Below, piece by piece: positions 23,282 to 39,157 of a DNA stretch of 64,000 nucleotides; the first letter of the stretch is position 1; the number at the start of each line of letters is the position of its first letter. Below the pieces are notes generated by a model. That model worked only from the letters and a program-made list of their open reading frames with translations. It was not told the DNA's origin and did not search any database. Source of the stretch: Gammaproteobacteria bacterium (GTDB lineage: Bacteria > Pseudomonadota > Gammaproteobacteria > UBA4575); the NCBI GenBank assembly GCA_965222615.1, contig CBDCUI010000008.1, positions 512,001 to 576,000 on the forward strand. The letters run 5' to 3'. The translations under genes were made by a program, and so were the position numbers.

Positions 23282-24229
23282 TCAAGGCAGTTTGGCTTCT
23301 AAATCTTCGACATTTACTTTAGGGTGGGCTTGCTTGAATTTTTCCAATTGTCGAGCGGCCTCGGCATAATCTTTTCTGGCGATCAACTTCTCAATCATTA
23401 ACAACCAGTCTCCTACAGGTATAGGAGCAAAATCAGTATCTTCTTTAGATTCAGCTCTGTCATCATGCAGCATGGGCTCTTGTTGTGCATCCGATTCGAA
23501 ATCTTTTCTAGATCTTTCTCGCGACATCGTTTCGGTATTGCCATTTGTACTATATGTACCTTCTTGAACAGTGGATGGCTGTTCATTAAGTATAGCTCTG
23601 GGAGAATCTTGCAAGGGTTCTAAGGTTCTGTTTGGTCTTGACGATTTAACCTCAGACTTAGATTTCATACTGGGTGCTGCAACAGATGGTTGTTCAGCTG
23701 GAACTTGTTCAAGTTTATTATTCCGTTGATACTCATCTAGCTGTCGAGATTTTTCTAATGTCGGTGTTGGTTGTGATACTGTTTCCTGGTCAAGTTTTTT
23801 TCTTGCTTCTAATTTCTCTTGCGCCGCATTAGCAGGTGTTTGAGTTTCGGCACGACCAGATAATTCTTCTGTCTCTGTCGCAATGCCATCAGTAGGCATA
23901 GAAATTTCATCAATGGGTGCATTGAAATCACCAGCCCCGCTTTTATTCTTTGTCGTAGTTTGCATATCAGATTCACTCGAGGGAATGGGTGGAATTTCTA
24001 ATTGTTCAGGGCTTTGATCAAGTTGTACCAGTAGTGCAAAAACTAACACCACACTTGCGGCCAACGATAGAGGCACTTTCCAACCACCACCAAAATGACT
24101 GCCACCACGTTTTGATGATTGTTTGTTGGCGGCATACTCTAAAATCTCTTGATCAAGCTCAGCAGAAGGGGCTTCATTTGCGCCTTTTTTATAAAGCTGT
24201 TTTAAAACTTGATCGTCTTGAGAATTCAT
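23282..24229 (-). CDS. Putative anti-sigma factor (single TM, low-complexity periplasmic region)
   Basis: Directly downstream of an ECF sigma; PSAELDQEIL, WKVPLSLAASVVLV, C-terminal helical domain. Confidence 0.65.
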   Translation of the reverse strand: MNSQDDQVLKQLYKKGANEAPSAELDQEILEYAANKQSSKRGGSHFGGGWKVPLSLAASVVLVFALLVQLDQSPEQLEIPPIPSSESDMQTTTKNKSGAGDFNAPIDEISMPTDGIATETEELSGRAETQTPANAAQEKLEARKKLDQETVSQPTPTLEKSRQLDEYQRNNKLEQVPAEQPSVAAPSMKSKSEVKSSRPNRTLEPLQDSPRAILNEQPSTVQEGTYSTNGNTETMSRERSRKDFESDAQQEPMLHDDRAESKEDTDFAPIPVGDWLLMIEKLIARKDYAEAARQLEKFKQAHPKVNVEDLEAKLP

Positions 24230-24252: not shown

Positions 24253-24816
24253 TTAATTTATTAGAGCAGCTTTAAGTTTGTTTTTAGCATAACGCAAACG
24301 GCTTTTAGCCGTTTCAGGATTTACCTTAGTGATTTCAGCTATTTCATTCACATTCATGTCTTGTTCAAAATGTAACAACGCTGCTTCTTTTTGGCTTGCG
24401 GGAAGTTCATCAAAGGCATGCATGAGTTGTTTAGTTTTTTGTTTCAAAGTGAACTCATCTTCAGGTAATGCCAAGGTATTTGACGTGTTAGTAAGTTCAT
24501 AATTCATTTCGGCTTCCTCGAATTCAACCACCTGAGCGGGTTTACTTTTTCTGTAGTAATCGACCAGCGTATTGTGAGCAATCGTAAACAAATAAGTTGT
24601 AAACTTTGCTTTGGGTTGATATCGAGTAGCACTGTTAATCAATTTAATCCATACCTCTTGATAAAGTTCTTCAGATTGCGGTTCGTCACTGCAATGCTTT
24701 ATAAAGTAACGATACAATGCATCTTTATATCTGCGATATAGTGTCTCAAAGGCTGCTTGATCTCCTTGCTGGTATTGCAGCATTAAGGCTTCGTCAGATA
24801 CATGCTTGTCCTCCAT
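24253..24816 (-). CDS. ECF RNA polymerase sigma factor
   Basis: SDEALM...AFETLY, EELYQEVW, region 4 ETAKSRLRYA. Confidence 0.92.
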   Translation of the reverse strand: MEDKHVSDEALMLQYQQGDQAAFETLYRRYKDALYRYFIKHCSDEPQSEELYQEVWIKLINSATRYQPKAKFTTYLFTIAHNTLVDYYRKSKPAQVVEFEEAEMNYELTNTSNTLALPEDEFTLKQKTKQLMHAFDELPASQKEAALLHFEQDMNVNEIAEITKVNPETAKSRLRYAKNKLKAALIN

Positions 24817-24956: not shown

Positions 24957-26120
24957 ATGGCGCTGTGCAGAATATCCAAACGCCTTGAGCAGCTAGAGTC
25001 GTTTCACGTCATGAGTTTAATGGCGGAGGCAAAACAGCTAGCAGCACAAGGGCATCACGTTATACACATGGAAATGGGTGAGCCCGATTTTTCCACGCCT
25101 GAACCTATAGTAGAAGCAGGTATCGCAGCATTACGTGCAGGCATAACGCACTATACCCCTACACTGGGACTGCCAGCTTTACGCGAAGCCATTGCAAATT
25201 TTTATCAAGAAGAATATGGCGTTACCGTATCTGCCGAACAGATTGTTATTACGCCTGGATCCGCCTTGGCATTACAACTGGTTTTAAATGTAATGATATC
25301 GGCTGGAGACCAAGTTGCGATTGCAGATCCTGCTTATCCAAGCACACATAATTTAGTTCGCTTACTGGGTGGTGTGGTATTGCATATGCCCGTGAGCGAA
25401 GCCTCGTCATGGCAACTTAATCTTGAATTATTAGAGCAAAATTGGAATGAATCCGTTAATGCAGTATTAATAGCAAGCCCCTCTAATCCAACTGGCACCA
25501 TACTCACAAATGATGAATTACAGAAAATTGTAGACTTTTGTGCAGAGAAGGGTGTATTTCTATTGGTCGATGAAATTTATCATGGACTAGTGTACTCGCA
25601 TGCACCTCGTACTGCAGTTGATATCAATGAAAATACATTCGTTATAAATAGCTTTTCGAAATTTTATGGCATGACGGGTTGGCGAGTGGGCTGGATTGTT
25701 GCGCCAAAAAGATATTTAAAAGAAATAAACAAACTTGCGCAACATACATTTTTAGCGGCCCCTACACCAGGACAATATGCAGCACTCGCAGCTTTTCAAA
25801 AAGACACAAAAGAGATTTTGCTAGCAAGACGTGAAGAATTTAAACAACGACGGGATTACTTAGTCAAAGCGCTCAAATCAATAGGTTTTGGAATTCCAGT
25901 AAAACCCGAAGGGGCCTTCTATATCTATGCTGATTCGTCAGCATTTTCAGATGATAGCTACGAATTTGCGCGCAAGGTATTAACAGAAAAACATGTCGCA
26001 TTTACACCAGGGATTGATTTTGGAGTAAACGGTGCTAAACAACATGTGAGATTTGCCTACACCACCAATCTAGAAAATCTAAAAATAGGTATTGAACGTT
26101 TAGCTGAAATAAAAGCTTGA
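24957..26120 (+). CDS. PLP-dependent aminotransferase class I/II
   Basis: GEPDF, SPSNPTG, DEIY, SFSKFYGMTGWRVGW. Confidence 0.93.
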   Translation: MALCRISKRLEQLESFHVMSLMAEAKQLAAQGHHVIHMEMGEPDFSTPEPIVEAGIAALRAGITHYTPTLGLPALREAIANFYQEEYGVTVSAEQIVITPGSALALQLVLNVMISAGDQVAIADPAYPSTHNLVRLLGGVVLHMPVSEASSWQLNLELLEQNWNESVNAVLIASPSNPTGTILTNDELQKIVDFCAEKGVFLLVDEIYHGLVYSHAPRTAVDINENTFVINSFSKFYGMTGWRVGWIVAPKRYLKEINKLAQHTFLAAPTPGQYAALAAFQKDTKEILLARREEFKQRRDYLVKALKSIGFGIPVKPEGAFYIYADSSAFSDDSYEFARKVLTEKHVAFTPGIDFGVNGAKQHVRFAYTTNLENLKIGIERLAEIKA

Positions 26121-26431
26121 ATGCATCCCAATAGATGCACTGATAAAAAAGTTTAACAAAAGAAAATAAATAATTATTAAAAGTAAGTTAATGATCTAAA
26201 TAATTAAAAAATAAAGAAACACAGCAATGACAAAATTTTGACACTTAACAAAACTGAACATTAATTATTCAGTTTTATAAAAAAACGTACAACAAACAAA
26301 CAACTTGAAATAACAACTTCATACAAAACAAGTGTAGTTACACAATAGAAACAAAAATAACTATTGAAATATACATTTAGACCGATATAGTTAAATCAAT
26401 AATCAAAATTAAGAAATTTTGGGGAGAATTT

Positions 26432-28030
26432 GTGGGGATTCCGGGGCAGAGTAAAAATAATCTAATTCATTTTTTTCGTTTAATTTTTTTGGTTTCAACT
26501 TTGTTCCTAGCTTATGGAGCATGTGTTCACGCTGGTGTTGGTCAATGTGTGTGCACATCAAATTGTGGCAATGTTCCATCAATAAATGCAAGTTCACCTG
26601 GGCAATGTTTTCCCTATTTTACTGAAGCATATAACAATACTTTTGGAACAGACTGTACTCACTCGCCAGAATTGATTGATAGTAATCACAATCCAAATGA
26701 AAATTTCACTTGGGATACATATGGCATGCATAACGTAGGTGGATCGCATGTAATTTGTCAAAATCCTGGTGGTGGTATGGTTCAATTCAGATACTGCTCA
26801 AATAACACTCAAAATTACCCAGAGTGTGAAACAAACCAAGTTTCACTTCCCAGCACATTAGGCGGGAAACAACCATCCTGCCCAAGAGGTAACCCAGTAC
26901 ACCCAGCCACAGGAAATAAGTTTCAAACTGAAACAGATTTTGCAAATACAGGTGAACTTTCGTTTACACGTTATTACAACAGTTTAGGAGAAGAAGAATA
27001 TGGGCTAGGCAAAGGCTGGAGTGCACAATATCACCAACATTTACTTATCTCATCGAGTATTTTAATAGTCCTAAATAACCAAGATGGACAGAGTCACGCA
27101 TTTAATTGTTCCTCTATAGGTGAATGTGAAAAGCTTGCAGATATAAAGGATTTACTAGAAAAAACTGCTACAGGCTTCCTGCTAACAACAGAAGATAATG
27201 TTGTTGAATCGTATGATCTTAATGGCAAACTTATCTCTATCACCTCGTTGTCAGGCCAAACTCAGACTTTAAGTTACAACAGCACGACAGACTTACTTGA
27301 GACCGTAACTGATAACAATGGCAGAATAATTAGTTTTACCTACGATACTCAAGAACGCCCTGCAACTATCACCGATCCAGATGGTGAGGTTTATACCTAT
27401 GACTACGATACCAATAACAACTTAGTTAAAGTTACCTACCCAGACAATACCCCAGGAACCAATACCGATAATCCAACCAGACAATATCAATACAACGACA
27501 CCAACTATCCAAATCACCTCACCGACATTATCGATGAAAATGGCAACACCTTTGCCAGTTTTGGCTACGACACCCAAGGCCGAGCCATCTTTACAGAACA
27601 TGCCAATGGAAATGAACGAATAGATCTAACCTACAACGCAGATGGTACTACTACAGTAACTGATTCACTCGGAGCAACCAACACCTACACCTATGAAATT
27701 ATGTTCGGGGTCCCCCGAACCTCAACCATAACTGGCGGACAGTGCGGAAGTGGATGTACCGGAGAAGGACAAGCACAAACCTATGATGCAAATGGATTTC
27801 TCGCAAGCCGCACCGACTTTGAAGGCAACATCACAACTTTTATTAATAACAGCCGAGGCTTACAAACTTCTCGAACCGAAGCCGTCAGCACCCCCGAAGA
27901 AAGAACCATCACCACCGAATGGCATTCCGATTTTAGATTGCCCACCAAAATAACCGAACCGGGTAAAGAAACCATCTTTACTTATGACACACAGGGCCGA
28001 CTCCTGTCGCGTGCGGAAAGAGAGATTTAA
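26432..28030 (+). CDS. Split-RHS N-half module 1: signal peptide, Cys-rich head, DUF6531-like domain, YD repeats
   Basis: GGGGAG RBS and GTG start; signal ending VHA; CPRGNPVHPATGNKFQ; FTRYYNS; YD repeats; ends QGRLLSRAEREI*. Confidence 0.88.
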   Translation: MGIPGQSKNNLIHFFRLIFLVSTLFLAYGACVHAGVGQCVCTSNCGNVPSINASSPGQCFPYFTEAYNNTFGTDCTHSPELIDSNHNPNENFTWDTYGMHNVGGSHVICQNPGGGMVQFRYCSNNTQNYPECETNQVSLPSTLGGKQPSCPRGNPVHPATGNKFQTETDFANTGELSFTRYYNSLGEEEYGLGKGWSAQYHQHLLISSSILIVLNNQDGQSHAFNCSSIGECEKLADIKDLLEKTATGFLLTTEDNVVESYDLNGKLISITSLSGQTQTLSYNSTTDLLETVTDNNGRIISFTYDTQERPATITDPDGEVYTYDYDTNNNLVKVTYPDNTPGTNTDNPTRQYQYNDTNYPNHLTDIIDENGNTFASFGYDTQGRAIFTEHANGNERIDLTYNADGTTTVTDSLGATNTYTYEIMFGVPRTSTITGGQCGSGCTGEGQAQTYDANGFLASRTDFEGNITTFINNSRGLQTSRTEAVSTPEERTITTEWHSDFRLPTKITEPGKETIFTYDTQGRLLSRAEREI

Positions 28031-28033
28031 TGT

Positions 28034-29623
28034 ATGAAAAAAAGTGCTTTACCTAACTTAAGTACATTAATACTGAAATCAGTTAGGCAACTACTTGTAC
28101 TAATTTTATTTTTATCAAGTACTACAAGTCTTGCTGCTGAGGTTTGGACACGAAGTGGGGGAATGGGTTATGGGTATTTTCCAACGGCTGCTGCATACTG
28201 CCAAGTATTTCAACAACAATTTTGTCACACAGAATGTAATCCATTCCCAATGACATGTGCGAGTCCTGACTGTAGCGCAGTGGGATGTACCGTTCAATAT
28301 AGAGTAACTCCTGCCACTAGTTTTTTGGTTGCAACTGAAATTATTTTAAAGGGGCCTTTACCAGCTGGAGAAACCATCAACAAAACCGAAAAAACCTTAG
28401 GCTCCCCTGCACCAGAGCAATGTGTGGGTAATCCAATTGATATTGCAACGGGAAACAAATATCAAAAAGAAACAGACTATGTTGATTCAAGAACCAGCCA
28501 AATTGTATTTGAACGCTACTACAACAGCATCGCGATAGATGATTCGCTTACAGGTAATCAATCATCACGTGCACTTGGGAACAACTGGAAACACACCTAC
28601 CAAAGAAGCATCTTTAACTCTGATGATGGTATTGATGAAGGCGTCGCGATTGCCTATCGACATACCGGTCGAGTTGAAAACTTCTTCTTGAATACAAGTA
28701 CTAATCAATGGGTACCCGATGCTGATATCACTAGCAGGCTTATACAACTAACGGATAGCACAGGAGATAAAATCGGTTGGGAATACACTACTGAACAAGA
28801 TGTAGTAGAAACCTACAATGCAACTGGTGTATTGCAAGCCATAACAAATAGAAACGGAGTTATACAAACACTCCACTATGATCTCGTGAGTGGCCTACTT
28901 ACTTCAATAACTGATTCATATGGCAATTCAATGTCATTCACCTATGACCTCAACGATCGTATACAAACCATGACCGATCTGGATGGCAAGTTATATCAAT
29001 ACACCTATTCACCTAATCTGATTCAAGTCGTGTATCCAGATGAGACACCTCAAAATAACGTAGATAACCCTATACGTGTCTACCATTACGAAGAAGCAAA
29101 TAAAACACTTCTTACAGGCATTACCGATGAAAATGGAAACCGATTTGCTTCTTGGGATTATGACGACACTACGAATAAAGCAATCCTCAGCGAACACAAC
29201 AGTGGGGTAGATAGGGTAACGGTAACGTATAACAATGATAGTACTACCACGATAATAGATGCGTTGGGCGCAAGTGACACATTTACGTTCCTAGATGTAC
29301 AAGGTGTAAGTCGTGTTTCAAATGTCGCAGGAGATCAATGTAATGTATGTGGAGCACAAGCACAGGCCTATACATATGACTCAAATGGATTTGTCGCTTC
29401 AGAAACCGACTTTGAAGGCAATCTCACTACCTTCATAAACAACAGCAGAGGATTACAAACAAGTAGAACTGAAGCGGTCGGCACACTCGAAGAAAGAACC
29501 ATCACCACTGAATGGCATCCCGATTTTAGATTGCCAACCAAAATAACCGAGCCAGGAAAAGAAACAATATTCACTTATGACGCTCAGGGCAGATTGTTGT
29601 CACGTACGGAAAGAGAGATTTAA
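28034..29623 (+). CDS. Split-RHS N-half module 2
   Basis: Signal ending SLA; CVGNPIDIATGNKYQ; FERYYNS; ends QGRLLSRTEREI*. Confidence 0.88.
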   Translation: MKKSALPNLSTLILKSVRQLLVLILFLSSTTSLAAEVWTRSGGMGYGYFPTAAAYCQVFQQQFCHTECNPFPMTCASPDCSAVGCTVQYRVTPATSFLVATEIILKGPLPAGETINKTEKTLGSPAPEQCVGNPIDIATGNKYQKETDYVDSRTSQIVFERYYNSIAIDDSLTGNQSSRALGNNWKHTYQRSIFNSDDGIDEGVAIAYRHTGRVENFFLNTSTNQWVPDADITSRLIQLTDSTGDKIGWEYTTEQDVVETYNATGVLQAITNRNGVIQTLHYDLVSGLLTSITDSYGNSMSFTYDLNDRIQTMTDLDGKLYQYTYSPNLIQVVYPDETPQNNVDNPIRVYHYEEANKTLLTGITDENGNRFASWDYDDTTNKAILSEHNSGVDRVTVTYNNDSTTTIIDALGASDTFTFLDVQGVSRVSNVAGDQCNVCGAQAQAYTYDSNGFVASETDFEGNLTTFINNSRGLQTSRTEAVGTLEERTITTEWHPDFRLPTKITEPGKETIFTYDAQGRLLSRTEREI

Positions 29624-29691
29624 TGTTGTGCAATCACTTTATACTAACTTCATATTACTCACAATAAAAAATAACTGAATGGGAGACTATT

Positions 29692-31386
29692 GTGAAGAGA
29701 TTTGAAAATCCCATCTGGGAACATTCTTCCTCGAATAATAGAGAATTATCAGACACTCAGGACAATATACTTAAAGTATGTGTCCGAGTTATTATTTTTT
29801 GGCTTTTAGTTTTAATGCTATTAGTATCTTATGCAGATGCAGAAATAGCAGGGTGTAATTCAATATTCGATGACGCTTCGTTTGCGGAAGGTGTAGTAAG
29901 AACATTCGGTACAAATGTTAATAACCCGTTTGTAAACATAACGCATAATGAACCACCAATAGTATGTACAGCAGTTGATGGTCAGGGAGAGTATTGTGGA
30001 GATCACCCAATAACAGGGGACACTGCGTGTGTTGCACATAGATATAAATGTCCAAATGTATTTAATGTGTGGGTAGGCCCTGGTTCGCAGCACTGTCCTT
30101 CTGGTGACCCTTGTCCACCTGGGTGGGAAGATAATGGCGTAGGCGGATGTTCGTATGCAGATACAAACATCCAGTTCCCTAAGGAGAATGGCATGCCTGA
30201 AACTGCCTGTTTAGGCAACCCAATAAACCCTGCCACAGGAAATAAATTTCAAATTGAAACTGATATTACCTCATCAGATAGATTAACGTTTTCACGATAC
30301 TACAATTCAATCAAAGACGAAGAATTAGGAACTATAATAATTGAAGGAAAATGGACATTTGATTATTTTCAAAGTTTGAAAATCTACACAAATGTAACTA
30401 CAAATTTATATTTTGCATTTGTTAACAGACAAGACGGGAAAAAATACCAATTCACATGTTCGGAATTACCTGGACCTTGTAGTAGTGATACAGATGTAAA
30501 ACTAACTCTAGATAAAACAATCAATGGGTACACGCTACTGACTGAAAATAACATTACAGAAAATTACGATACCGATGGTAAATTGCTATCAATTACTGAT
30601 CTATCGGGGCGAACACAGACACTTAGCTATAACGTGGGCAATGGACTGCTTGAAACAGTAACAGATTTCTTTGGCAAAACACTTGTATTCACACACGATG
30701 TAAATAAACGGTTGGAAACGGTTTCTGATCCTGACGGGGACGTATATACATACATATATAACGCTACGACTGGAAATTTAGAAAGTGTCATTTATCCAGA
30801 CGATACGCCAGGCACCAGCACAGATAACCCTAAAAGAGAATATCTATATAATAACCCTAATTTTGATTCGCTCTTAACAGCTATTATAGATGAAAATGGG
30901 AATATATTTTCAGAGTGGGCTTATGACGCGCAAGGAAGAGCAGTCATGTCTAAATATGCAGGTGGGGCCGAACAAGTAAATATAACATACAATTCTAATG
31001 GTACTGTGAATGTTACGGATTCTCTAGGTGCAAGCAATATATATTCATTTGAAGTACATGCACACTCAAATAAATTATCTTCTATAAGTGGCGGACAATG
31101 CGGCAGTGGCTGTTCAAATCAAGGCCAAGCACAAACCTATGATGTGAATGGCTTCTTAGCCTCACGCACAGACTTTGAAGGCAACGTCACCACATTCATA
31201 AACAACAGCCGAGGCTTACAAACCTCACGTACCGAAGCGGTAGGCACACCCGAAGAACGCACGATCACTACCGAATGGCATCCGACATTTAGACTTCCAA
31301 CCAAGATTGCTGAGCCTGGAAAAGAAACCCTCTTTACTTATGACGCGCAGGGGCGTTTGTTAACACGTTCTGAAAGGGAGCTATAA
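29692..31386 (+). CDS. Split-RHS N-half module 3
   Basis: GGGAG RBS and GTG start; signal ending ADA; CLGNPINPATGNKFQ; ends QGRLLTRSEREL*. Confidence 0.88.
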   Translation: MKRFENPIWEHSSSNNRELSDTQDNILKVCVRVIIFWLLVLMLLVSYADAEIAGCNSIFDDASFAEGVVRTFGTNVNNPFVNITHNEPPIVCTAVDGQGEYCGDHPITGDTACVAHRYKCPNVFNVWVGPGSQHCPSGDPCPPGWEDNGVGGCSYADTNIQFPKENGMPETACLGNPINPATGNKFQIETDITSSDRLTFSRYYNSIKDEELGTIIIEGKWTFDYFQSLKIYTNVTTNLYFAFVNRQDGKKYQFTCSELPGPCSSDTDVKLTLDKTINGYTLLTENNITENYDTDGKLLSITDLSGRTQTLSYNVGNGLLETVTDFFGKTLVFTHDVNKRLETVSDPDGDVYTYIYNATTGNLESVIYPDDTPGTSTDNPKREYLYNNPNFDSLLTAIIDENGNIFSEWAYDAQGRAVMSKYAGGAEQVNITYNSNGTVNVTDSLGASNIYSFEVHAHSNKLSSISGGQCGSGCSNQGQAQTYDVNGFLASRTDFEGNVTTFINNSRGLQTSRTEAVGTPEERTITTEWHPTFRLPTKIAEPGKETLFTYDAQGRLLTRSEREL

Positions 31387-31389
31387 GAC

Positions 31390-32952
31390 ATGAATAAAAT
31401 TCGAAAATTAGATCAAATTATGTCTCTAATTTTTGTCTGTGTAACATTTTATTTTGGTACAACTAGTTTTTTATTTGCACATCAACCACCTTCTGCACCG
31501 AGTATTTGCATTGGTATGTTTTCGTCATGCAGCCCTGCAGCAAGGAGCACATGTTTTTCTGATTCTAGTTTTGTCCCAGAATGTGGTGCGATTATGAATG
31601 GTCCAGGGCTTTGTAGTGGGACAAACTTTTACCAATATAGACATACAAGTTTTGGGCATCTCCACCAATATGGATGCATTGATACTGGCGGGTGTTCTAC
31701 AAGTGAATATGCTGATGGTTTTGGAGCATGTGTAGCTGATACCCAACTAGATTTAGTAAGAACCTTGGGTGATCCAGAAGGATCATGTCCAAGAGGTAAT
31801 CCAATTCATGCTTCTACTGGTAATAATTTTGAAACTGAAATAGATTATTCCTTAAGTAATGGTGGTTTAAATTTCATTCGCTATTACAACAGTCTTTCTC
31901 AAAATGATGTTGACCTTGGAATAAAATGGACAGCGTCTTATTTCCAAAATCTTTCTGTTAACTTTTTTTTCGTCACAGTTAATCAAGCAGATGGTGGAAT
32001 TGAAAAATTCTCATGTACTGCAAATACATTTCAAAACATAGGTCCATGTACATCAAGTTCTGATGCAATTATTCAACTTGAAAAAACAAATTCAGGCTAT
32101 TCATTGACAACTAAGAATAATCAGATTGAAGAATATGACCCAACCGGAAAACTTCTATCGATTACATCAACTACAAATGGAATTCAAAATTTAGCTTACA
32201 ACTCGACGACCAACTTACTTGAATCGGTAACTGATCAATTTGGTCAATCATTATCTTTTGCATATGATGTAAATAATCGTTTAGAAACTGTTACTGATCC
32301 AGATAATAATGTTTATAGTTATTCTTATGATTCTAATAATAATTTAGAAATAGTCACTTATCCTGACAATACTCCTTTAAACACTAATGATAATCCGACA
32401 AGGACTTATCATTATGAAGATACAAATTTACCAAATCATCTTACGGGAATCACAGATGAAAATTCTAACCGATATGTAACTTGGGGTTACGATACCCAAG
32501 GTAGGGCTATGTTCAGCGAGCATAACGGTGGTGCAGATCGAACTGACTTTACATATAACTCGAATGGAACTACTACTGTTACAGATTCCCTTGGTGCATC
32601 AAATACATACTCGTATGAAATGTCAGTTGGTATTCCGCGAACAATTACAATTACTGGTGGACAGTGTGGTAGTGGCTGTTCGGGCGAAGGGCAAGCACAA
32701 ACCTATGATGTCAACGGATTTCTCGCATCAAGAACCGACTTCGAAGGCAACGTCACCACATTCATAAATAACAGCCGAGGTTTACAAACTTCTCGAACCG
32801 AAGCAGTAGGCACACTCGAAGAACGCACTATCACTACCGAATGGCATCCAGATTATAGACTGCCAACCAAAATCACCGAACCGGGGAAAGAAACCGAATT
32901 TATCTATGACACGCAGGGCCGACTCCTGACACGTACCGAGCGGGAGATCTAG
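31390..32952 (+). CDS. Split-RHS N-half module 4
   Basis: Signal ending LFA; CPRGNPIHASTGNNFE; ends QGRLLTRTEREI*. Confidence 0.88.
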   Translation: MNKIRKLDQIMSLIFVCVTFYFGTTSFLFAHQPPSAPSICIGMFSSCSPAARSTCFSDSSFVPECGAIMNGPGLCSGTNFYQYRHTSFGHLHQYGCIDTGGCSTSEYADGFGACVADTQLDLVRTLGDPEGSCPRGNPIHASTGNNFETEIDYSLSNGGLNFIRYYNSLSQNDVDLGIKWTASYFQNLSVNFFFVTVNQADGGIEKFSCTANTFQNIGPCTSSSDAIIQLEKTNSGYSLTTKNNQIEEYDPTGKLLSITSTTNGIQNLAYNSTTNLLESVTDQFGQSLSFAYDVNNRLETVTDPDNNVYSYSYDSNNNLEIVTYPDNTPLNTNDNPTRTYHYEDTNLPNHLTGITDENSNRYVTWGYDTQGRAMFSEHNGGADRTDFTYNSNGTTTVTDSLGASNTYSYEMSVGIPRTITITGGQCGSGCSGEGQAQTYDVNGFLASRTDFEGNVTTFINNSRGLQTSRTEAVGTLEERTITTEWHPDYRLPTKITEPGKETEFIYDTQGRLLTRTEREI

Positions 32953-33050
32953 CCATGTCATATATAAGCAAAAGATTACAACAAACTTTAATGAATCAAT
33001 TATTAAATAACTTCAAACAAAAAACACAAAATCCAACGGGGAGAGACACG

Positions 33051-35789
33051 ATGGGGAACTACACCAACACACACAAGAACCATCAAGGCGCCATAGCAAT
33101 ACTGGGAATATTGCTAATCGCATTTACGTACGATGCCAATGGCAATGTGTTGACTATCGATGGGCCTCGTACTGATGTAAGTGACGTAACCACCTTTACC
33201 TATGACGCCATGGGTAATCGCGCCACCATGAGTGTGGATCCCGATGGTGCTGGGCCTGCCCCTGCGCAAGTGACGCAATTCACCAGTTATGACAACAGTG
33301 GCCGCATACTGTCCATGACCGATCCCAATGGAATAGTTACCGACATGACCTACGATGCCAGAGGACGACTCTTAACCCGCACCGTCGCTGCCGGCACAGG
33401 AAGTGCCGCCACCACAACCTTTGAATACGATGGCGTCGGCAACGTAACCAAGATTGTTCTTCCCAGTAACAACGAACTCAACTACACCTACGATGCAGCA
33501 CAACGCTTAACCAGGATTACCGATCGCCAAGGCCACTACATCCAATACACCTTAGACAATCTTGGTAATCGCACCAAAGAAGAAGTTTTTCAAAACAACG
33601 GAACTCTACGCCGCACCCAAACCAGAGTATTCGATCAACTCAGTCGTATGATCCAAAGTATCGGTGGCGAAAACCAACTCAGCGTATTTGGCTATGATGG
33701 CAACGGCAACCAAATCTCAGTCCTCGATCCACTAAACAGGAATAGCACGAGTGAATACGATGGTTTACAACGCCTAATCAAACAAACCGACCCGGATACC
33801 AATGACACACAGTATGCCTATGATGCCAGAGACAACTTAACCAGTGTTACTGATCCAAGAGGTCTCACCACCACTTACACCTACAATGGACTCGATGACT
33901 TAACCCAACTCACCAGTCCAGATACCGGTACAACAACCTATACCTACGACGATGCGGGTAATCGCACCAGTCAAACCGATGCAAGAAACATCACCACCAA
34001 CTACAAATACGATGCCTTAAACCGACTCATCCAAATCGAATATCCCGGGCAAGCCGGTCTCAATATCGATTTTATCTATGACACCATATGCGTCCATTGC
34101 AAAGGACGGTTGCGAGAAATCCAAGACAACACCGGGCGCTATGTATATGCCTACAGTCGATTGGGCGAAGTCACCCTAGCCAGAAGAGTCAGCCAAGGAC
34201 AAATCTATGATACGAGATATACCTATGACAAAGCCGGCAACAACACCAAGATTACCTATCCCTCAGGCAAAGAAATTCAATACGTCTACAACAGCATTAA
34301 AAGAGTAAAAGAAGTTAAACTAATAGATGGAGCCACCACCACAACCCTAGCCAACAACATCGTGTATCGCATGTTTGGGCCAATGCAAAAAGTAGAGTTC
34401 GGAAATGGACTCATTACAACTAGCAACTACGATATGGATTATCGACAGTTAAATAGTCGAACCTTACCCTTAATCGATTATCGATATATCTACGATGAAG
34501 CCAACAACATCACCAGTTGGCGCAACATTGCGAATACAAGTGAGAACCAAGACTTTATCTACGACAATCTCGATCGACTCACCAGTGCCGATGGCAACTA
34601 TGGACTCATCAACTACACCTACGATGCCGTGGGGAATCGACTCACCAAAACCGACAATGGCAATACCGACACCTATGCCTACAAACCCACAAGACATCAT
34701 CTCGATGACATTACCGATGCCAATAGTGTAGTAACAGACTACAATCACACCGCAGCGGGAAGCATCAACAGAATAGGAACGGATACCTATGGCTATAGCA
34801 AAACCGGCAGGATGGCCAATGCGATAATAGGAGGAATAAAGACTACATACCGATATGATGGCAAAGGGCAGAGAACCTTAAAAACCGAAGATGCCACCGG
34901 CAACAAAACCCTGTATCACTATGATGAAGCAGGACAACTCATAGCAGAAACCCAAGCAGATGGCACCACGATACGAGAATACATCTATCTGAATGGCCAA
35001 CCGATCGCGATGCTAGAGAACAACAACCTCTACTACTATCATTTGGATCATCTCGGCACACCACAAATGATGACCGATGCCACCCAAACAGTAGTATGGC
35101 AAGCTAATTATGATCCGTTTGGAAATGCAACAGTTGCAGTGAATACAGTTACTAATAATATTCGTTTTCCCTCACAGTATTTTGATTCGGAAACTGGACT
35201 ACACTACAACATTCTAAGGGACTATGATCCAGGTACAGGTAGGTATATGCAAAGCGATAGCATTGGGTTAACCGGCGGTCTTAATACATATTTGTATGCA
35301 CTTGCGAATTCAACGCGTTATATTGATTTAGATGGAGCAATGCCATGTGAGCGAGGCGATTATCCTTGTTTGAATAGCATGGGTGGGTTTTTTAATCCTA
35401 AGGCATTCCCACAAAGAGGACATCGAGGTATTTTCCCAGGAGGTGGACCTTTAGAACACCACAATCGAAATGTTAATCAAACATGTCCTCCAAAAAACCC
35501 GTGTGATACCACAAACAACAATCAATGCCAGGAATCGAATTGTAAGGATTGGGTGTTTGAAGGAAGACCAGGGCTACATTGTAGCTACAAGACATATCGA
35601 GGCGTATCAAGTTCTAACCAAGGTTTCCAATGTTCATATGATGAAACTGGAAATCTAGTTACAGATTCACGTTGTGCAGGAACGTTTGACTTTAGTCCTC
35701 CCTATGATGAGTTCGGGAAGCCGACTCCAAATAGAGTAGGTAAGCATTTTAGTAAAGATGTTATACCTTTTTTATTATTCGGAAATTAG
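33051..35789 (+). CDS. Split-RHS C-half: YD shell, RHS core and Cys-rich C-terminal cargo domain
   Basis: GGGGAG RBS before ATG 33051 (ORF open from 32955); short hydrophobic leader, then FTYDANGNVLTIDGPRTDVSD; HLDHLGTP, YDPFG, ETGLHYN, GRYMQSD; ~150 aa variable tail. Confidence 0.9.
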   Translation: MGNYTNTHKNHQGAIAILGILLIAFTYDANGNVLTIDGPRTDVSDVTTFTYDAMGNRATMSVDPDGAGPAPAQVTQFTSYDNSGRILSMTDPNGIVTDMTYDARGRLLTRTVAAGTGSAATTTFEYDGVGNVTKIVLPSNNELNYTYDAAQRLTRITDRQGHYIQYTLDNLGNRTKEEVFQNNGTLRRTQTRVFDQLSRMIQSIGGENQLSVFGYDGNGNQISVLDPLNRNSTSEYDGLQRLIKQTDPDTNDTQYAYDARDNLTSVTDPRGLTTTYTYNGLDDLTQLTSPDTGTTTYTYDDAGNRTSQTDARNITTNYKYDALNRLIQIEYPGQAGLNIDFIYDTICVHCKGRLREIQDNTGRYVYAYSRLGEVTLARRVSQGQIYDTRYTYDKAGNNTKITYPSGKEIQYVYNSIKRVKEVKLIDGATTTTLANNIVYRMFGPMQKVEFGNGLITTSNYDMDYRQLNSRTLPLIDYRYIYDEANNITSWRNIANTSENQDFIYDNLDRLTSADGNYGLINYTYDAVGNRLTKTDNGNTDTYAYKPTRHHLDDITDANSVVTDYNHTAAGSINRIGTDTYGYSKTGRMANAIIGGIKTTYRYDGKGQRTLKTEDATGNKTLYHYDEAGQLIAETQADGTTIREYIYLNGQPIAMLENNNLYYYHLDHLGTPQMMTDATQTVVWQANYDPFGNATVAVNTVTNNIRFPSQYFDSETGLHYNILRDYDPGTGRYMQSDSIGLTGGLNTYLYALANSTRYIDLDGAMPCERGDYPCLNSMGGFFNPKAFPQRGHRGIFPGGGPLEHHNRNVNQTCPPKNPCDTTNNNQCQESNCKDWVFEGRPGLHCSYKTYRGVSSSNQGFQCSYDETGNLVTDSRCAGTFDFSPPYDEFGKPTPNRVGKHFSKDVIPFLLFGN

Positions 35790-35795
35790 TATTTA

Positions 35796-36095
35796 TTGAA
35801 GTTACATACTGATATGACTTCATTTATTACAGGCTTATTAGTGTGGGGTATTGCTATTTACGCCCTAAATCCATGGAAAGTATTGGAAGAAAATTCTAAT
35901 AACACTTCATTCCAGACGAATATTATTCTTTTGGTAGTTATATTACTCTCTATATTTGGAATTTTTATGGGCACTTATGCAATAAGAAAAGAGGCCTCAA
36001 GTAAAGCAATTGCTATTATAGGAATGGTGCTTAATGGTGCGTTTTTTTCCTTCTGCGTTATAGGTTTATTAATTGCGCTATTTGGGTCTGTGTAA
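35796..36095 (+). CDS. Small 3-TM protein, putative immunity/accessory protein
   Basis: Starts 6 nt after the RHS stop; three hydrophobic segments; function inferred from position only. Confidence 0.6.
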
Positions 36096-36327
36096 GATTT
36101 CCTGGCCAGTATTACGACCAGGAGACGGGCGCACACTATAACTATCATAGATACTACGACCCAGAATTAGGTAGATATAGAGAAGCAGATCCATTATTGC
36201 AACCAAATCGATTTTTAACAGATGATTTTGCGTTTTATGTTCCAGACTTGATTCAAGTATCTGCCTCGTGGCTACATCCTTACTCATATGTGACTTCCCG
36301 ACCAATTACTTTAACTGACCTAGCCCG
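36095..36327 (+). pseudogene. Orphan RHS core fragment truncated by IS30
   Basis: Reads [34 protein letters not shown]...[15 protein letters not shown]; no start codon; ends at the IS left end. Confidence 0.85.
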
Positions 36328-37431
36328 GGCAGATTCTAGATCCAAGTGCACCACTAACTTAAGTGGCAGGACATGAATTCTTATCCAAGTAAAATGAGGT
36401 TTTCGAGATCTTATTTTAGCAGGAGGGATTCATGTCCTACGTACATGTTAGCGCAAAAGAACGTCATACATTAATGTATTTGTTGCATCTTCGTTTCAGT
36501 TATCGAGAGATTGGACGTCGATTAGGCCGTCATCACAGCACCATCTCAAGAGAAGTCAAACGTAATGGTCGCAGGTCTGGTTGGAGTTATTGGGATGAAT
36601 ACGCGCAGTGCCAAGCGCAACAGCGTAAACGTCAGCCTCGTCATCGGAGAAGACGAGATCATCAAACACTCTATAACAAGGTCATCGCGTACTTACGCCA
36701 AGGCTGGTCCCCGGATGCCATCAGTGGCTGGTTGCGCAGACATTACAAGAAGCGTTCTCGCGTACAGGTCTGCACAGAAACGATTTATCAGTGGATCTAT
36801 TGTGATGCCCAAACAGGCGGCACGTTATATCACTATTTAGCCTCGCAGCATAAGAAGCGCAAACGACAGCCTTTGAATAGGCTCAAAACGATCGGCATTT
36901 CACATCGAGTAGGGATTGAACATCGTCCTGATCATATTGAAAAAAGACAACGACTAGGCCATTGGGAAGGCGATACGGTGGAAGGGGCCAAAGGCTGTGG
37001 CGGTGTGGTGACCTTAGTCGAACGTAAAAGCCGGTTTCTTCTTGCAGGTTTGCTTAAAGACAAACAAGCCCTCACCTTTAGTCAAGTTTCACAACAAGCA
37101 CTTAAAAACATTCCAAGTACACTATGCAAAACATTGACCTTGGACAATGGGAAAGAAAATGTCCTGCATCAACAAATCAGCCAATCAAAAAAGATGAAGA
37201 TCTATTTCACCGATCCGTATTCACCTTGGCAACGCGGTACCAATGAACAAACCAATGGTTTATTGAGAAGAACCTTTCCTAAAGGAACTGATTTTCGTAA
37301 AGTATCTAAACAACAACTTAAAAAAGCCGTTAAACGCATTAATCAACGACCTCGTAAAATACTCAACTACTTAACACCTGAGGAAGTTTTTATGAATGCC
37401 GTGAATGGTGCACTTTGAATTGGAACTCGCC
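36328..37431 (+). mobile_element. IS30 family insertion sequence
   Basis: Imperfect 25 bp TIRs GGCAGATTCTAGATCCAAGTGCACC / GGTGCACTTTGAATTGGAACTCGCC (18 of 25 match); no target duplication visible. Confidence 0.88.
36432..37418 (+). CDS. IS30 family transposase
   Basis: HTH STISREVKRN, GHWEGDTV, DNGKE, SPWQRGTNEQTNGLLR, RPRK. Confidence 0.95.
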   Translation: MSYVHVSAKERHTLMYLLHLRFSYREIGRRLGRHHSTISREVKRNGRRSGWSYWDEYAQCQAQQRKRQPRHRRRRDHQTLYNKVIAYLRQGWSPDAISGWLRRHYKKRSRVQVCTETIYQWIYCDAQTGGTLYHYLASQHKKRKRQPLNRLKTIGISHRVGIEHRPDHIEKRQRLGHWEGDTVEGAKGCGGVVTLVERKSRFLLAGLLKDKQALTFSQVSQQALKNIPSTLCKTLTLDNGKENVLHQQISQSKKMKIYFTDPYSPWQRGTNEQTNGLLRRTFPKGTDFRKVSKQQLKKAVKRINQRPRKILNYLTPEEVFMNAVNGAL

Positions 37432-37465: not shown

Positions 37466-38158
37466 ATGCCCCGCAAACCACGATTTTATCTCAAAGGAGT
37501 GCCCTGTCACATCGTACAGCGAGGCAATAATCGAGAGCCCATCTACTTTGAAAAAGAAGACTATCTTTCCTATTTAGAATGGTTAGAAGAAGCTCTAATA
37601 CGCTATGAATGTGAGATACATGCCTATGTGCTCATGACCAATCACGTCCATCTTCTTATTACCCCGAATACCAAGAAAGGCATCAGCCAAACCATGCAAT
37701 ATGTAGGCAGACACTATGTACCCTATATAAATCATATGTATGGAAGGAGCGGAACCTTATGGGAAGGACGATATAAAGCCAGTTTGATAGAAAGTGAAAG
37801 CTACTTACTCACCTGTATGCGCTATATCGAACTTAACCCCGTGCGTGCCAACATGGTAAAAAGTCCAGGACAATATAAATGGTCCAGCTACCAAAGCAAT
37901 GCAACGCAAAAAGAAGACCCGCTACTTACTCAACACCCCAAATACAAAGCATTAGGAAGAACGAAACAACAACGAAAGCATGCATATAGAGAACTGTTTC
38001 GACACCACATCGATGACAAAGATTTACATAACATACGAGAGTGTTGGCAAAGTGGCACGCCCTTGGGGAATGATCGTTTTCGAGCCAAGATTGAGCAACG
38101 ACTGAAAACCAAAGTAGGCCAAACTCAGCGTGGAAGACCAAGGAAAACCACTGTCTAA
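37466..38158 (+). CDS. REP-associated tyrosine (Y1/HUH) transposase, RAYT-like
   Basis: MPRKPR, HIVQRGNNR, YVLMTNHVHLL, LWEGRY, YIELNPVRA, WSSY. Confidence 0.9.
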   Translation: MPRKPRFYLKGVPCHIVQRGNNREPIYFEKEDYLSYLEWLEEALIRYECEIHAYVLMTNHVHLLITPNTKKGISQTMQYVGRHYVPYINHMYGRSGTLWEGRYKASLIESESYLLTCMRYIELNPVRANMVKSPGQYKWSSYQSNATQKEDPLLTQHPKYKALGRTKQQRKHAYRELFRHHIDDKDLHNIRECWQSGTPLGNDRFRAKIEQRLKTKVGQTQRGRPRKTTV

Positions 38159-38256: not shown

Positions 38257-38587
38257 ATGGTTATCATTGAAACCTACATCTTTACACGCATCATTCGTGA
38301 ATTGATGGATGACGAAAACTATGCGCAGTTAACAGTTACAAGAGTTGTTGGCCCAGCAACCTGACAAAGGCGATGTCATCCGTGGTAGTGGTGGCTTGCG
38401 CAAAGTGCGTTGGAAAGTAGAAGGTAAAGGTAAGTGTGGCGGGGTACGAATCATCTATTACTGGGTTAGTGCAGATGATCAAATATGGATGCTGTATGGA
38501 TATGCGAAAACAAGTCAGGAAGACTTAAGCAAAGAGCAGCTAAAAGCTTTACGTGAAATCGTAACGAGGTGGAAACATGAACGATAA
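38257..38587 (+). pseudogene. HigB/RelE toxin, frameshifted
   Basis: MVIIETYIFTRIIRELMDDENYAQL joins QELLAQQPDKGDVIRGSGGLRKVRW...GGVRIIYY only if 7 nt of CAGTTA-A-CAGTTA (38326-38338) are removed. Confidence 0.8.
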
Positions 38588-38882
38588 AATGTTTAATGAA
38601 CTACTAAAAAGTGTACAAGAGATGGATCAGATTTCCAAAGGTAAAAAACGTGCTTCACGTCGTTTTACAATTAAAGCCCCTCAAGTGAAACGCATCCGTG
38701 AAAGGACTGGTTTATCACAAGCACATTTTGCAAGACTCATTGGAGTGAGTAAACGTACTTTGGAAAATTGGGAACAGGAACGAAGGCAACCTACAGGGCC
38801 AGCGCGAGCGTTATTAAAAATTTTGGAATCAGACCCAGAAGGGGCAGTGCAAGCCTTACATAGTTCATCACAAGGGCTCTGA
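38577..38882 (+). CDS. HigA-like Xre HTH antitoxin
   Basis: IRERTGLSQAHFARLIGVSKRTLENWEQ..RQPTGPARALL. Confidence 0.88.
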   Translation: MNDKMFNELLKSVQEMDQISKGKKRASRRFTIKAPQVKRIRERTGLSQAHFARLIGVSKRTLENWEQERRQPTGPARALLKILESDPEGAVQALHSSSQGL

Positions 38883-38968
38883 CTTCTTTTCAGCTTCTTT
38901 TCCAGGGTAAAGCAAACAGATCGATTATCCAGTACACTATTCTATAGCAATTTAAATGAGGTAAGGCT

Positions 38969-39157
38969 ATGCAAACTGCGAAACAAGAAGTAGAAGCGAT
39001 GCTACAGCATCTACCTGATGAAAGTACGATAGAAGATATTCAATATCATCTGTATGTATTGGAAAAGATCAAGCGAGGGCAAAATGACATTGCTGATGGC
39101 AAGAGCTGTAGTCACGAACAAGCAAAACAACGACTAAGTCGATGGCTCAATTTATAA
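38969..39157 (+). CDS. Antitoxin partner of a ParE/RelE toxin
   Basis: LPDESTIEDIQYHLYVLEKI..G; GAGG RBS; overlaps the toxin start. Confidence 0.8.
   Translation: MQTAKQEVEAMLQHLPDESTIEDIQYHLYVLEKIKRGQNDIADGKSCSHEQAKQRLSRWLNL

Follow-up and report, generated by a model that had tools for sequence, protein, structure and literature searches.

A putative Sec-exported Rhs toxin, probably built from two polypeptides, with four alternative N-terminal halves

Organization of the locus

The window (the whole 64,000-nt stretch of DNA analysed) contains five consecutive ORFs for YD-repeat proteins, four N-terminal halves (N1 to N4) followed by one C-terminal half (Table 1). The original prediction of four tandem genes, each with a signal, a DUF6531 segment and YD repeats, was confirmed. 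DUF6531 (PF20148) was detected in N1 to N4 with E values of 8e-18 to 2e-8, together with RHS_repeat matches in each, and is absent from the C-half in the Pfam scan. YD (RHS) repeats of PF05593 occur in all five proteins (E values of 1e-14 to 9e-66), with TIGR01643 matches also, and the C-half has eight RHS_repeat stretches. A hydrophobic core lies within the first 70 aa of all four N-halves (KD10 2.7-3.3). The heads are Cys-rich (7-9 Cys within 97-124 aa) and unrelated, as had been proposed: they do not align with one another, and none has a Pfam family match at E ≤ 0.5. All four N-halves stop at one common point, ending in ...TYDxQGRLLxRxERE(I/L).

The gaps between successive ORFs from N1 to the C-half are 3, 68, 3 and 2 nt, and the ERE codons also provide the Shine-Dalgarno sequence of the ORF that follows. 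Three of the starts (N1, N3 and the C-half) are uncertain, that of N3 because of its GTG codon, shared with N1, and its long N-region. Judged from the sequence, the internal ATG at 33051 (MGNY...), which has a good Shine-Dalgarno sequence, is the likelier start of the C-half than 32955. The best promoter-like site upstream of N1 is weak evidence for a promoter, since the region holds no excess of such sites (33 vs. 33.2 in shuffles). The reading frame of the C-half differs from that of N4, and a non-RHS stretch separates the two, with 56 residues preceding FTYDANGNVLTIDGPRTDVSD; the YD sequence resumes at FTYDANGNVLTIDGPRTD, after a hydrophobic leader.

Table 1. Positions of the genes and sequence features in the window
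Feature	Position	Strand	Remarks
Promoter-like site upstream of N1	26364-26391	+	Best one; TTGAAA-16-TATAGT, 10/12
N-half 1 (N1)	26432-28030	+	532 aa; putative signal peptide, head rich in Cys (about residues 35-152), DUF6531 plug (153-224), YD repeats, tail EREI; GTG start
N1 tail	27803-28027	+	Equivalent to N4 tail
N-half 2 (N2)	28034-29623	+	529 aa; layout as N1
N2 tail	29396-29620	+	Equivalent to N4 tail
N-half 3 (N3)	29692-31386	+	564 aa; layout as N1; tail EREL; GTG start
N3 tail	31159-31383	+	Equivalent to N4 tail
N-half 4 (N4)	31390-32952	+	520 aa; layout as N1; DUF6531 136-207
N4 conserved tail	32725-32949	+	Last 75 aa; proposed docking segment
C-half ORF	32955-35789	+	944 aa
C-half leader	32955-33122	+	Residues 1-56; hydrophobic core AIAILGILLIA at 33090-33122, directly abutting FTYD
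C-half YD-repeat shell portion	33123-35030	+	Residues 57-692 (Pfam); matches fused G007_1707
RHS core / C-terminal plug	35031-35336	+	Variant aspartyl-protease motif SDSIGL...DLDGA
C-terminal cargo domain	35340-35786	+	149 aa, 9 Cys
Small hydrophobic ORF	35796-36095	+	99 aa; by eye, three hydrophobic stretches
Orphan Rhs-core remnant, open frame	36035-36376	+	Homologous part 36092-36196; cut off by IS element
IS30-type insertion element	36334-37425	+	Inverted repeats 36334-36358 and 37401-37425; transposase 36432-37418
IS200-like Y1 transposase	37466-38158		Downstream of IS30-type transposase

The two halves tile fused relatives

Alignment showed that the N- and C-halves are complementary, as the original prediction had it. 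The N-halves align to the fused protein G007_1707 up to residue 551 and the C-half resumes at 563; the corresponding end and resume residues are 516/526 in G001_1291 and 529/542 in G001_1798. Only the ~9-residue inter-hairpin loop of the fused relatives is left uncovered by the two halves. The fused junctions read ...LLTRTEKDL-SNNNT-RTTTFTYDSNGNVLTINGPRTD, and a natural split/fused pair with 71% identity has its break in the matching loop. The DxxGR motif is described as a hairpin turn in Rhs shells (PMC10684867); thus, the break leaves both hairpins whole. The order given in the original prediction, PTKITEPG shortly before DGPRTDV, holds in five fused relatives. The three closest fused proteins, G007_1707, G001_1798 and G001_1291, have identities of 49-60% to N1, N3 and N4, 39-47% to N2 and 54-57% to the C-half, whose shell aligns to residues 563-1189 of G007_1707 with 57% identity.

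Recurrence of the split in other bacteria

Among the near-length matches, 99 of 120 end close to the last position of N4, either 0-3 (97) or 8-9 (2) residues past it. In a length-unbiased search, the best 150 cluster representatives comprise 67 that end at the break, 69 that continue for at least 400 aa (fused), 11 that continue for less than 400 aa and 3 that stop short of the tail; relatives are neither all fused nor variable in their break point. N-halves ending at the break were found in 20 of 79 genome loci. The next ORF is a C-half in all 18 that have downstream DNA, the other two ending at a contig edge. These 18 loci have one N-half in 14 cases, two in 3 and four in 1. Among the 80 metagenome loci, 12 were flagged as split and 10 proved true splits after inspection; L170 and L190 were rejected as frameshifted fused genes. 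Cultured carriers are Marinobacterium stanieri DSM 7027, Pseudomonas mangrovi TC11, Pseudomonas fluvialis and Exilibacterium tricleocarpae.

In the N-region tree, split and fused proteins are interleaved, with at least 5-7 changes between the two states, indicating either recombination or easy interconversion. N3 is the sister of the fused gene of G007. The recurrence of the break point in many other bacteria argues for a real toxin architecture, and the split build looks like an undescribed way of making Rhs toxins rather than a broken gene.

Conserved tails and selection

The tails of the N-halves in the window share amino acid identities of 0.87-0.91, compared with 0.38-0.57 for the bodies, and form direct repeats of ~220 nt with ~82% nucleotide identity. 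Tail excess, defined as a body identity below 0.60 with a tail identity of at least 0.87 in a co-resident pair of N-halves, was found in 6 of 6 pairs in the window, 3 of 6 in L035, and the single pairs of L041 and L084. The one pair of L115 falls outside this definition (tail 0.85), and there is no tail excess in L081, which has two modules (body 0.82, tail 0.69). Of 938 non-co-resident pairs, only 2 have the pattern, and these link two loci of one genome. The tail dS is just 0.24-0.26 in L041 and L084, and in the window it is about 1, below the saturated body dS; gene conversion could partly lie behind the common tails. The tail segment is conserved in fused proteins as well, and this conservation therefore does not specifically mark an interface.

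The dN/dS of the window modules is 0.15-0.25 for the bodies where dS is finite and 0.05-0.09 for the tails, at a tail dS of 0.84-1.67. The N-half modules are under purifying selection and are not decaying.

Export signals, core and cargo of the C-half

Signal peptides were assessed by a crude hydropathy and AxA scan. A hydrophobic core is present in 31 of 36 N-halves from the loci, and 19 of the 22 C-halves scored have a hydrophobic core and, immediately ahead of the resumed strand, an AxA-like site, as in the junction ...LGLPAQA/AERSWSYTYN of one relative. By this test, C-halves would generally carry their own Sec signal. The window C-half has the hydrophobic core without the c-region. Its leader aligns with the cleavable signal peptides of its three closest relatives (P0122-P0124; 65-68% identity over the whole protein and 74-88% over the first 330 residues) minus 11-12 residues, which in the relatives make up the cleavage region (...FAMPVHA) and the first residues of the mature protein. 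The deletion is in frame and leaves the hydrophobic core intact (KD 3.2). The window C-half may therefore be impaired in export or processing, or may stay membrane-anchored.

The RHS core (PF03527) spans C-half residues 693-726, and TIGR03696 matches residues 719-794 with 76 bits (cut-off 32.5). Compared with the consensus DPxG-x18/19-DPxG, the core motif reads DSIG...DLDG(A): it retains the two Asp residues but differs in the prolines and the final Leu; relatives have DPIGL...DPxGL and vary at the positions altered in the window. The cargo domain belongs to no known family. Its homologues in 400 other genomes of the class are one clear match (39% identity, E 7e-18) and one marginal match (E 5.5e-4).

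Proposed assembly and alternative explanations

The locus probably encodes a Sec-exported Rhs (YD-shell) toxin made from two polypeptides, in which one C-half can be capped by any of the four N-halves. The N-half would contribute its signal peptide, a variable head rich in disulfides, the DUF6531 plug and about the first third of the β-spiral. The C-half would bring a leader of its own for export, the remainder of the spiral, the C-terminal plug with the aspartyl-protease RHS core, and the encapsulated toxin. After export, the last hairpin of the N-half (...FTYDxQGRLLxRxEREI) would pair with the first C-half hairpin (FTYDANGNVL...), closing a single shell in the manner of TcB and TcC in Tc toxins, and one cargo would gain four alternative outer faces. 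Since the putative docking tail was kept while the heads and bodies diverged, a single C-half could be capped by any N-half. These comparisons of sequence lend good support to the predicted assembly in trans and to a free pairing of heads; we infer that all four N-halves are used simultaneously and that the heads have a targeting role.

An unlikely alternative is that the split family is functional in general and the window copy is impaired, being either recently disabled or membrane-tethered. The loss of the cleavage region and the altered core motif point this way, as do the IS element and the orphan remnant directly downstream. However, the deletion in the leader is in frame and spares the hydrophobic core, the -3/-1 rule for signal cleavage is still satisfied by the L-I-A that precedes F, all five ORFs are open and constrained, and both catalytic Asp residues are kept in a motif that varies at the same positions in relatives. 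It is extremely improbable that the array is a pseudogenised single Rhs gene with decaying duplicated fragments. Mobile elements do lie nearby, and the two rejected metagenome loci ending near the break show that frameshifted fused genes occur, but dN/dS is well below 1 at saturated dS, the stop position recurs in so many cluster representatives, and the signal peptide of the relatives sits exactly at the resumed strand.

That there is no joint shell, the N-halves being stand-alone secreted YD proteins such as adhesins and the C-half a self-sufficient shorter Rhs toxin, is quite unlikely. A signal and a ribosome-binding site are present for every gene, and some C-halves bear large heads of their own (L034, L035, L114, L118), as such a division would have it. 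However, a shell of the C-half alone would be open at one end, because it has no DUF6531 N-terminal plug; moreover, the two halves match fused relatives nearly residue by residue, N- and C-halves are adjacent at every genome locus with downstream DNA, and the N tails track the identity of the locus rather than that of the N body. It is very unlikely that the array is a reservoir of cassettes in which recombination at the tails swaps the N-half beside, or expressed with, the C-half, one being used at a time. Rhs loci are classical recombination hotspots, and the tails as direct repeats, their dS below that of the bodies, and the interleaving of split and fused states on the tree are all consistent with such swapping. 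Against it, each module has a signal peptide, a Shine-Dalgarno sequence, an intact frame and translational coupling to the next, and expression requires no fusion to the C-half; in addition, no deletion joints of the array occur in the contigs of four runs, in which rare variants are dropped.

A doubtful extension of the two-chain toxin is that extracytoplasmic assembly of Rhs shells, from two or three separately exported pieces with fixed inter-hairpin breaks, is common to many proteobacteria, the lid piece (N-plug and head) being an exchangeable recognition subunit whose binding or release opens the shell. If true, this would give a physical mechanism of cargo release and a combinatorial repertoire of heads by toxins.

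Relation to known systems

Rhs/YD shells are regarded as one-chain containers, with Tc toxins as the sole two-chain exception. In the Tc BC cocoons described for TcdB2-TccC3 and YenB-YenC2, two polypeptides form one YD shell, the RHS core protease and the encapsulated toxin are both on the C chain, and one B can take several C (PMC4612132, PMC11067744). The window resembles Tc toxins in gene layout, two YD chains with the cargo on the second, and its C-half matches TccC3 and YenC2 at the core only (E values of 1e-6 to 7e-10). However, no TcB mid-N domain (PF12256, TcdB_midN) was found in the 99.8%-complete source genome, with the control detected, and the N-halves have no SpvB or beta-propeller match in Pfam, their matches being confined to DUF6531 and RHS_repeat. 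The break also lies elsewhere in the shell, both chains bear Sec-type leaders, and the N-terminal chain is multiplied rather than the cargo chain. The search for the TcA-type domain VRP1 (PF03538) is uninformative, as it gave no match in the source genome or in any of 14 control genomes.

The single-chain Rhs effectors Tse5, RhsA, Rhs1/Tre23 and Tse15 share with the window the DUF6531 plug, the YD-hairpin barrel and a C-plug with a paired-Asp motif, which is a variant in the window. The best PDB sequence matches are 8h8a (8e-57) and 7q97 (2e-43) for the C-half and 7q97 (2e-17) for N4. DUF6531 is reported as the N-terminal plug of solved Rhs shells, and Tse5 as self-cleaved into three peptides that are held together non-covalently (PMC10684867). 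Whereas Tse5, RhsA, Rhs1 and Tse15 are made as one chain and delivered by a T6SS via PAAR/VgrG, in the window the shell is encoded in two genes, each with a putative signal peptide. The lack of PAAR noted for the window extends to the whole 99.8%-complete genome, in which neither PAAR (PF05488) nor TssC (PF05943) was found, both controls being detected. The fused Sec-signal DUF6531-Rhs proteins of the same clade (G001 and G007 relatives) have the order of parts and the PTKITEPG...DGPRTD region of the window, but in a single ORF; at the site of their inter-hairpin loop, split genes are interrupted by a stop, followed by a new start and a signal peptide.

Many genes annotated just as 'RHS repeat protein' or 'YD repeat-containing protein' have the exact common break and a predicted signal peptide per piece, and some split loci hold several alternative front halves in an array. 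Should the pieces assemble as proposed, they would provide a natural shell seam open to study by mixing purified parts, polymorphism would exist at the recognition end as well as the toxin end, and annotation should cease labelling the halves as fragments.

Downstream region and C-terminal variation

The 99-aa ORF directly downstream of the C-half has only a sub-threshold holin match in Pfam and no NCBIfam match; from its position, this small membrane protein is a candidate immunity protein, which would be its likely role in the proposed two-chain toxin. The claim that the window contains no recombinase gene was wrong, as IS30-type and IS200-like Y1 transposase genes lie directly downstream.

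Orphan CT cassettes typically have no starts, and their expression requires recombination. Rhs loci with orphan toxin cassettes resemble the window in having tandem alternative modules with a common conserved junction segment, but the alternative modules of the window are N-terminal, complete and separately translatable. The proposed reversal of the usual layout is only half borne out, as a remnant of a classical orphan C-terminal cassette is kept at the locus. One other genome has near-identical C shells with toxins that differ; together with the remnant, this indicates that N- and C-terminal polymorphism coexist. The source genome also encodes a 2270-aa Rhs protein, followed by five orphan cassettes.

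Anatomy of the Rhs locus

Reading of the window showed six tightly packed open reading frames (ORFs) on the + strand at 26432-36095: four tandem front-half Rhs ORFs (the N-halves, N1-N4), one back-half ORF carrying the RHS core and a C-terminal cargo (the C-half), and a small hydrophobic ORF. The start codons of several ORFs in the array are uncertain. Each of N1-N4 contains DUF6531 and RHS_repeat (Pfam), and all four share the C-terminal end ...TYDxQGRLLxRxERE(I/L). Their heads, from the signal peptide to DUF6531, comprise 97-124 residues with 7-9 cysteines and cannot be aligned with one another. The C-half holds the RHS core and eight RHS_repeat stretches (Pfam), with the Rhs-associated core domain at residues 719-794 (NCBIfam). 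Its ORF differs in frame from N4 and starts 2 nt past the N4 stop; the YD shell resumes at FTYDANGNVLTIDGPRTDVSD after 56 non-RHS residues. The ORF coordinates, Pfam matches and alignments thus bear out the original prediction in its description of the ORFs, heads, shared tail and out-of-frame C-half. From N1 through the C-half the gaps between ORFs are 3, 68, 3 and 2 nt, and at three junctions the ERE codons themselves form the Shine-Dalgarno of the next gene.

In the C-half the core motif takes the variant form SDSIGL...DLDGA, which keeps both aspartates; relatives differ at the same positions. The cargo domain (149 aa, 9 cysteines) has no assigned family, and 400 other genomes of the class yielded one clear homologue and one marginal (E 5.5e-4). 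No Pfam family matched the heads or the cargo domain at E<=0.5, and NCBIfam gave no model specific to either half. Promoter and terminator scans of the region performed no better than shuffles.

Features of the Rhs locus and its surroundings (window positions)
Feature	Position	Strand	Remarks
ORF beside the sigma factor ORF	23282-24229	-	one hydrophobic segment (by eye)
ECF-type sigma factor ORF	24253-24816	-	by eye from translation
N1	26432-28030	+	532 aa, ORF
N2	28034-29623	+	529 aa, ORF
N3	29692-31386	+	564 aa, ORF
N4	31390-32952	+	520 aa, ORF
C-half	32955-35789	+	944 aa, ORF
Hydrophobic small ORF	35796-36095	+	99 aa
Orphan Rhs-core remnant	36035 on; homologous part 36092-36196		beyond the small membrane ORF; cut by the IS30-type element
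IS30-type transposase	36432-37418		element with 25-nt inverted repeats at 36334-36358 and 37401-37425
IS200-like Y1 transposase	37466-38158		after the IS30-type element
RelE-like toxin and HTH/Xre partner	38345-38882		just past the transposases
ParE-family toxin	39142-39450		just past the transposases

Complementarity of the two halves

Single-ORF, full-length homologues are present in the genome of the window and in relatives. BLAST comparisons showed that the N-halves map up to residue 551 and the C-half from residue 563 on in the 1707-aa fused protein of one relative (G007). In a second relative (G001) the corresponding residues are 516 and 526 in a 1291-aa fused protein and 529 and 542 in a 1798-aa one. 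In a side-by-side alignment the fused junction reads ...LLTRTEKDL-SNNNT-RTTTFTYDSNGNVLTINGPRTD, and in the split genes the N-half ends after the residues that correspond to TEKDL, while the C-half picks up at FTYD. The halves, which in the original prediction looked complementary, therefore tile the fused proteins of both relatives.

According to PMC10684867, the hairpin turn of solved Rhs shells is formed by the DxxGR motif; the break therefore sits between two complete hairpins. The same paper identifies DUF6531 as the N-terminal plug of the Rhs barrel, and thus the N-halves carry the lid together with the initial part of the spiral. The C-half holds the remaining spiral, the C-terminal plug and the cargo, with no N-terminal plug of its own in the Pfam scan.

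Conservation of the break

A length-restricted search with N4 gave 481 matches at E<=1e-10. Among the 120 listed, 99 end near the last position of N4 (97 at 0-3 residues, 2 at 8-9), and the other 21 run on past the break. Because of the length restriction, the search was repeated in a length-unbiased library of 50%-identity representatives. Among the best 150, 67 stop at the break (66 of them within 0-3 residues), 69 run on for at least 400 residues, 11 run on less and 3 have no tail coverage. These counts argue against relatives that are only fused or that break at variable points.

Among 79 genome loci (one genome per species), 20 have N-halves stopping at the break, two of which are cut by a contig end. 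The next ORF is a C-half in all 18 with downstream sequence, so the same N-then-C order and split point recur elsewhere. One N-half was counted in 14 loci (or at least one, where the flank is short), two in L041, L081 and L084, and four in L035, a Thiotrichales MAG. Cultured carriers include Pseudomonas mangrovi TC11, P. fluvialis, Pseudomonas sp. NCHU5216, Marinobacterium stanieri DSM 7027 and Exilibacterium tricleocarpae. Twelve of 80 metagenome loci were flagged as split; inspection retained ten, some with two or at least three consecutive N-halves, and L170 and L190 turned out to be frameshifted fused genes. A sample of 60 relatives of the window's genome showed homologues in fused form only, in G001 and G007, and within this family the split has so far been seen in the window's genome alone.

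For the N region, a quick LG+G4 tree covers 84 rows (27 split, 57 continuing), limited to those with a match to N4 that begins no later than residue 150 and extends at least to residue 495; the alignment leaves out the last five residues. The split or fused state changes at least 7 times on this tree, 5 of the changes being forced by starred branches, which in a quick tree deserve less trust than those from a careful search. Shuffled labels required 22.9 changes on average, and none of 500 shuffles was as low as observed. A split-only clade of 18 rows (support 96) unites Pseudomonas, Marinobacterium, Cellvibrionaceae and Sedimenticolaceae. By contrast, the sister of the window's N3 is the fused gene of G007 (support 99), and that of one L035 module is the fused gene of L033 (support 100). 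The tree is most simply read as N regions having recombined between split genes and fused ones.

Export signals and the C-half leader

C-halves at other loci start with textbook signal peptides that end a few residues before the resumed strand, as in ...ALGLPAQA/AERSWSYTYN and ...VSGPAAA/DRAVSYTYN. A crude scan (a hydrophobic 10-mer with KD>=2.0, then an AxA-like site) was passed by 19 of the 22 scored C-halves, by 31 of the 36 N-halves from loci and by N1-N4. The three C-half failures are one borderline case (1.96), the fragmented, frameshifted-looking L125 and the frameshifted gene of L170.

The hydrophobic leader noticed earlier on the window's C-half is present in an atypical form. The closest metagenomic C-halves (P0122-P0124) are 65-68% identical to it over the whole protein and 74-88% over the first 330 residues, and their leaders read ...FAMPVHA/DRTTSFTYDANGNVLTIDGPRTD. 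Aligned to them, the window's C-half lacks 11-12 residues, from the end of the hydrophobic region through the cleavage site into the first mature residues; its core AIAILGILLIA therefore directly abuts FTYD. This leader may be cleaved, act as a membrane anchor or be defective, and it is the main caveat for the window's locus. The first ATG of the C-half (32955) is coupled to the N4 stop, and a second ATG inside the ORF, at 33051 and preceded by a strong Shine-Dalgarno, matches the start of the relatives' signal peptides. Joining of N4 to the C-half by intein-type splicing, read-through or frameshifting was rejected, because the sequence between them shows homology to the cleavable signal peptides of relatives and each upstream module is followed by another complete gene.

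Constraint and shared tails

The modules could instead be decaying fragments, a reading that the substitution rates argue against. Between pairs of N1-N4, dN/dS is 0.15-0.25 in the DUF6531-plus-YD body wherever dS is finite (synonymous sites are saturated or nearly so), and 0.05-0.09 (dS 0.84-1.67) in the last 73 aligned codons; the comparison is meaningless for the unalignable heads. The modules are not decaying.

The last 75 residues of the window modules are 87-91% identical, compared with 38-57% for the bodies. Fitting 972 non-co-resident pairs from 45 N-halves gave tail = 0.45 x body + 0.39 (residual sd 0.071). Co-resident tails lie above this line by z of 3.3-4.6 in the window, 2.3-4.4 in L035, 5.1 in L041, 5.2 in L084, 3.2 in L115, 2.5 in L123 and 1.0 in L120; L081 lies at -1.0. 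Tail identity reaches at least 0.87 in only 2 of 938 non-co-resident pairs with body identity below 0.60, and both join L084 and L086, two contigs of one MAG. The C-half shells of these two loci are 94-100% identical over most of their length, with one stretch of ~150 residues at 67-72%; third-position identity in the near-identical parts is mostly 0.84-0.94. Their toxin domains are unrelated and their three N-halves differ strongly in body, which amounts to a heads-by-toxins matrix inside one genome. With shells alike and N bodies unlike, the N tail therefore tracks the accompanying C shell and not its own body. A shared docking surface would predict such a pattern. Gene conversion also contributes to the shared tails; tail dS is 0.24-0.26 in L041 and L084, 1.2-1.6 in L035 and about 1 in the window.

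The three N-halves of L084 and L086 have bodies 30-40% identical and tails 89-96% identical. Contigs of four sequencing runs showed no deletion joints across the modules, and one match of 28 nt with 3 mismatches was judged spurious. A contig of X1, which may be the source sample, covers 25900-33842 with zero differences from the window.

Proposed assembly and known systems

Most likely, judging from the genes, two exported chains close one shell. Sec would export both chains, and the C-half would fold around its own C-terminal domain. An N-half would then dock via its last hairpin and the neighbouring turn, with DUF6531 closing the N-terminal opening and the disulfide-rich head staying exposed. 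Four N-halves with one shared tail would thereby give one cargo shell four outer faces. The comparisons show the gene anatomy, the tiling, the conserved break, the relatives' export signals, the constraint and the tail pattern; from them we infer that the halves assemble, that all four N-halves are in use, what part the heads play and which path leads across the outer membrane.

In its working the locus would come closest to the TcB-TcC cocoon of Tc toxins, where two chains make up the shell and the second bears the cargo. The Pfam scan of the N-halves and the search for the TcdB mid-N domain both set the locus apart from the Tc toxins. In a profile search of the window's 99.8%-complete genome TssC, PAAR and TcdB mid-N were not found, nor was VRP1, for which the control was also silent. 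By sequence the locus belongs to the DUF6531-Rhs clade, yet it breaks the one-chain rule of that clade. Full-text searches of the literature outside subscription journals turned up no account of Rhs genes that break at a fixed position and have a signal peptide on both pieces, although supplementary files may list such pairs, and passages of PMC10684867, PMC4612132 and PMC3482391 do not describe the arrangement. The split would surprise a specialist and, on a comparative basis, opens the question of shell assembly to experiment.

Other breaks and insertions

The same Rhs clade has a second recurrent break ~190-200 residues further on, with tails ...RVYDALNRLQQITGxxQ, and another at about residue 1186 of the fused reference (loci L090, L095, L080, L099 and L043; proteins P0083, P0086, P0087, P0103, P0108 and P0111). 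In L090 and L095 the ORF after each break opens with its own signal-peptide-like leader; these two loci and L080 resemble shells made in three pieces. In L099 (Collimonas humicola) a single C-part is preceded by two tandem N-parts whose tails are identical.

Four C-halves (L034:11206-15876, L035:10399-16092, L114:1735-3207 and L118:2217-4859) carry 370-1000 extra residues after the signal peptide, made up of acidic TSP3-like repeats and Ig-like segments; only then does the shell resume, at its usual strand. Large insertions are therefore tolerated in the seam loop as well. The ORFs L077:9380-13999 and L047:9071-11875 end at a common earlier place, ...DENxNRFAT, and the ORF after the broken N-part has no signal peptide in L077 and L105:4442-9103. 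These three loci may represent frameshifts or yet another break point.

Genomic neighbourhood

The original prediction was wrong in stating that the window has no recombinase gene, since IS30-type and IS200-like transposase genes lie directly downstream of the array. The toxin genes just past them make 38345-39450 look like a small mobile or toxin-antitoxin island adjoining the Rhs locus. Elsewhere in the same genome, at G000:C9:26700-38200, a 2270-aa Rhs-matching frame is followed by five frames of ~300 aa, all of which match the C-half in its core region. Here the layout is that of classical C-terminal orphans, and the genome has both it and the N-terminal array. The ECF-type sigma factor ORF lies two genes upstream of the array, and a regulatory link of this ORF and its neighbour to the array is possible.
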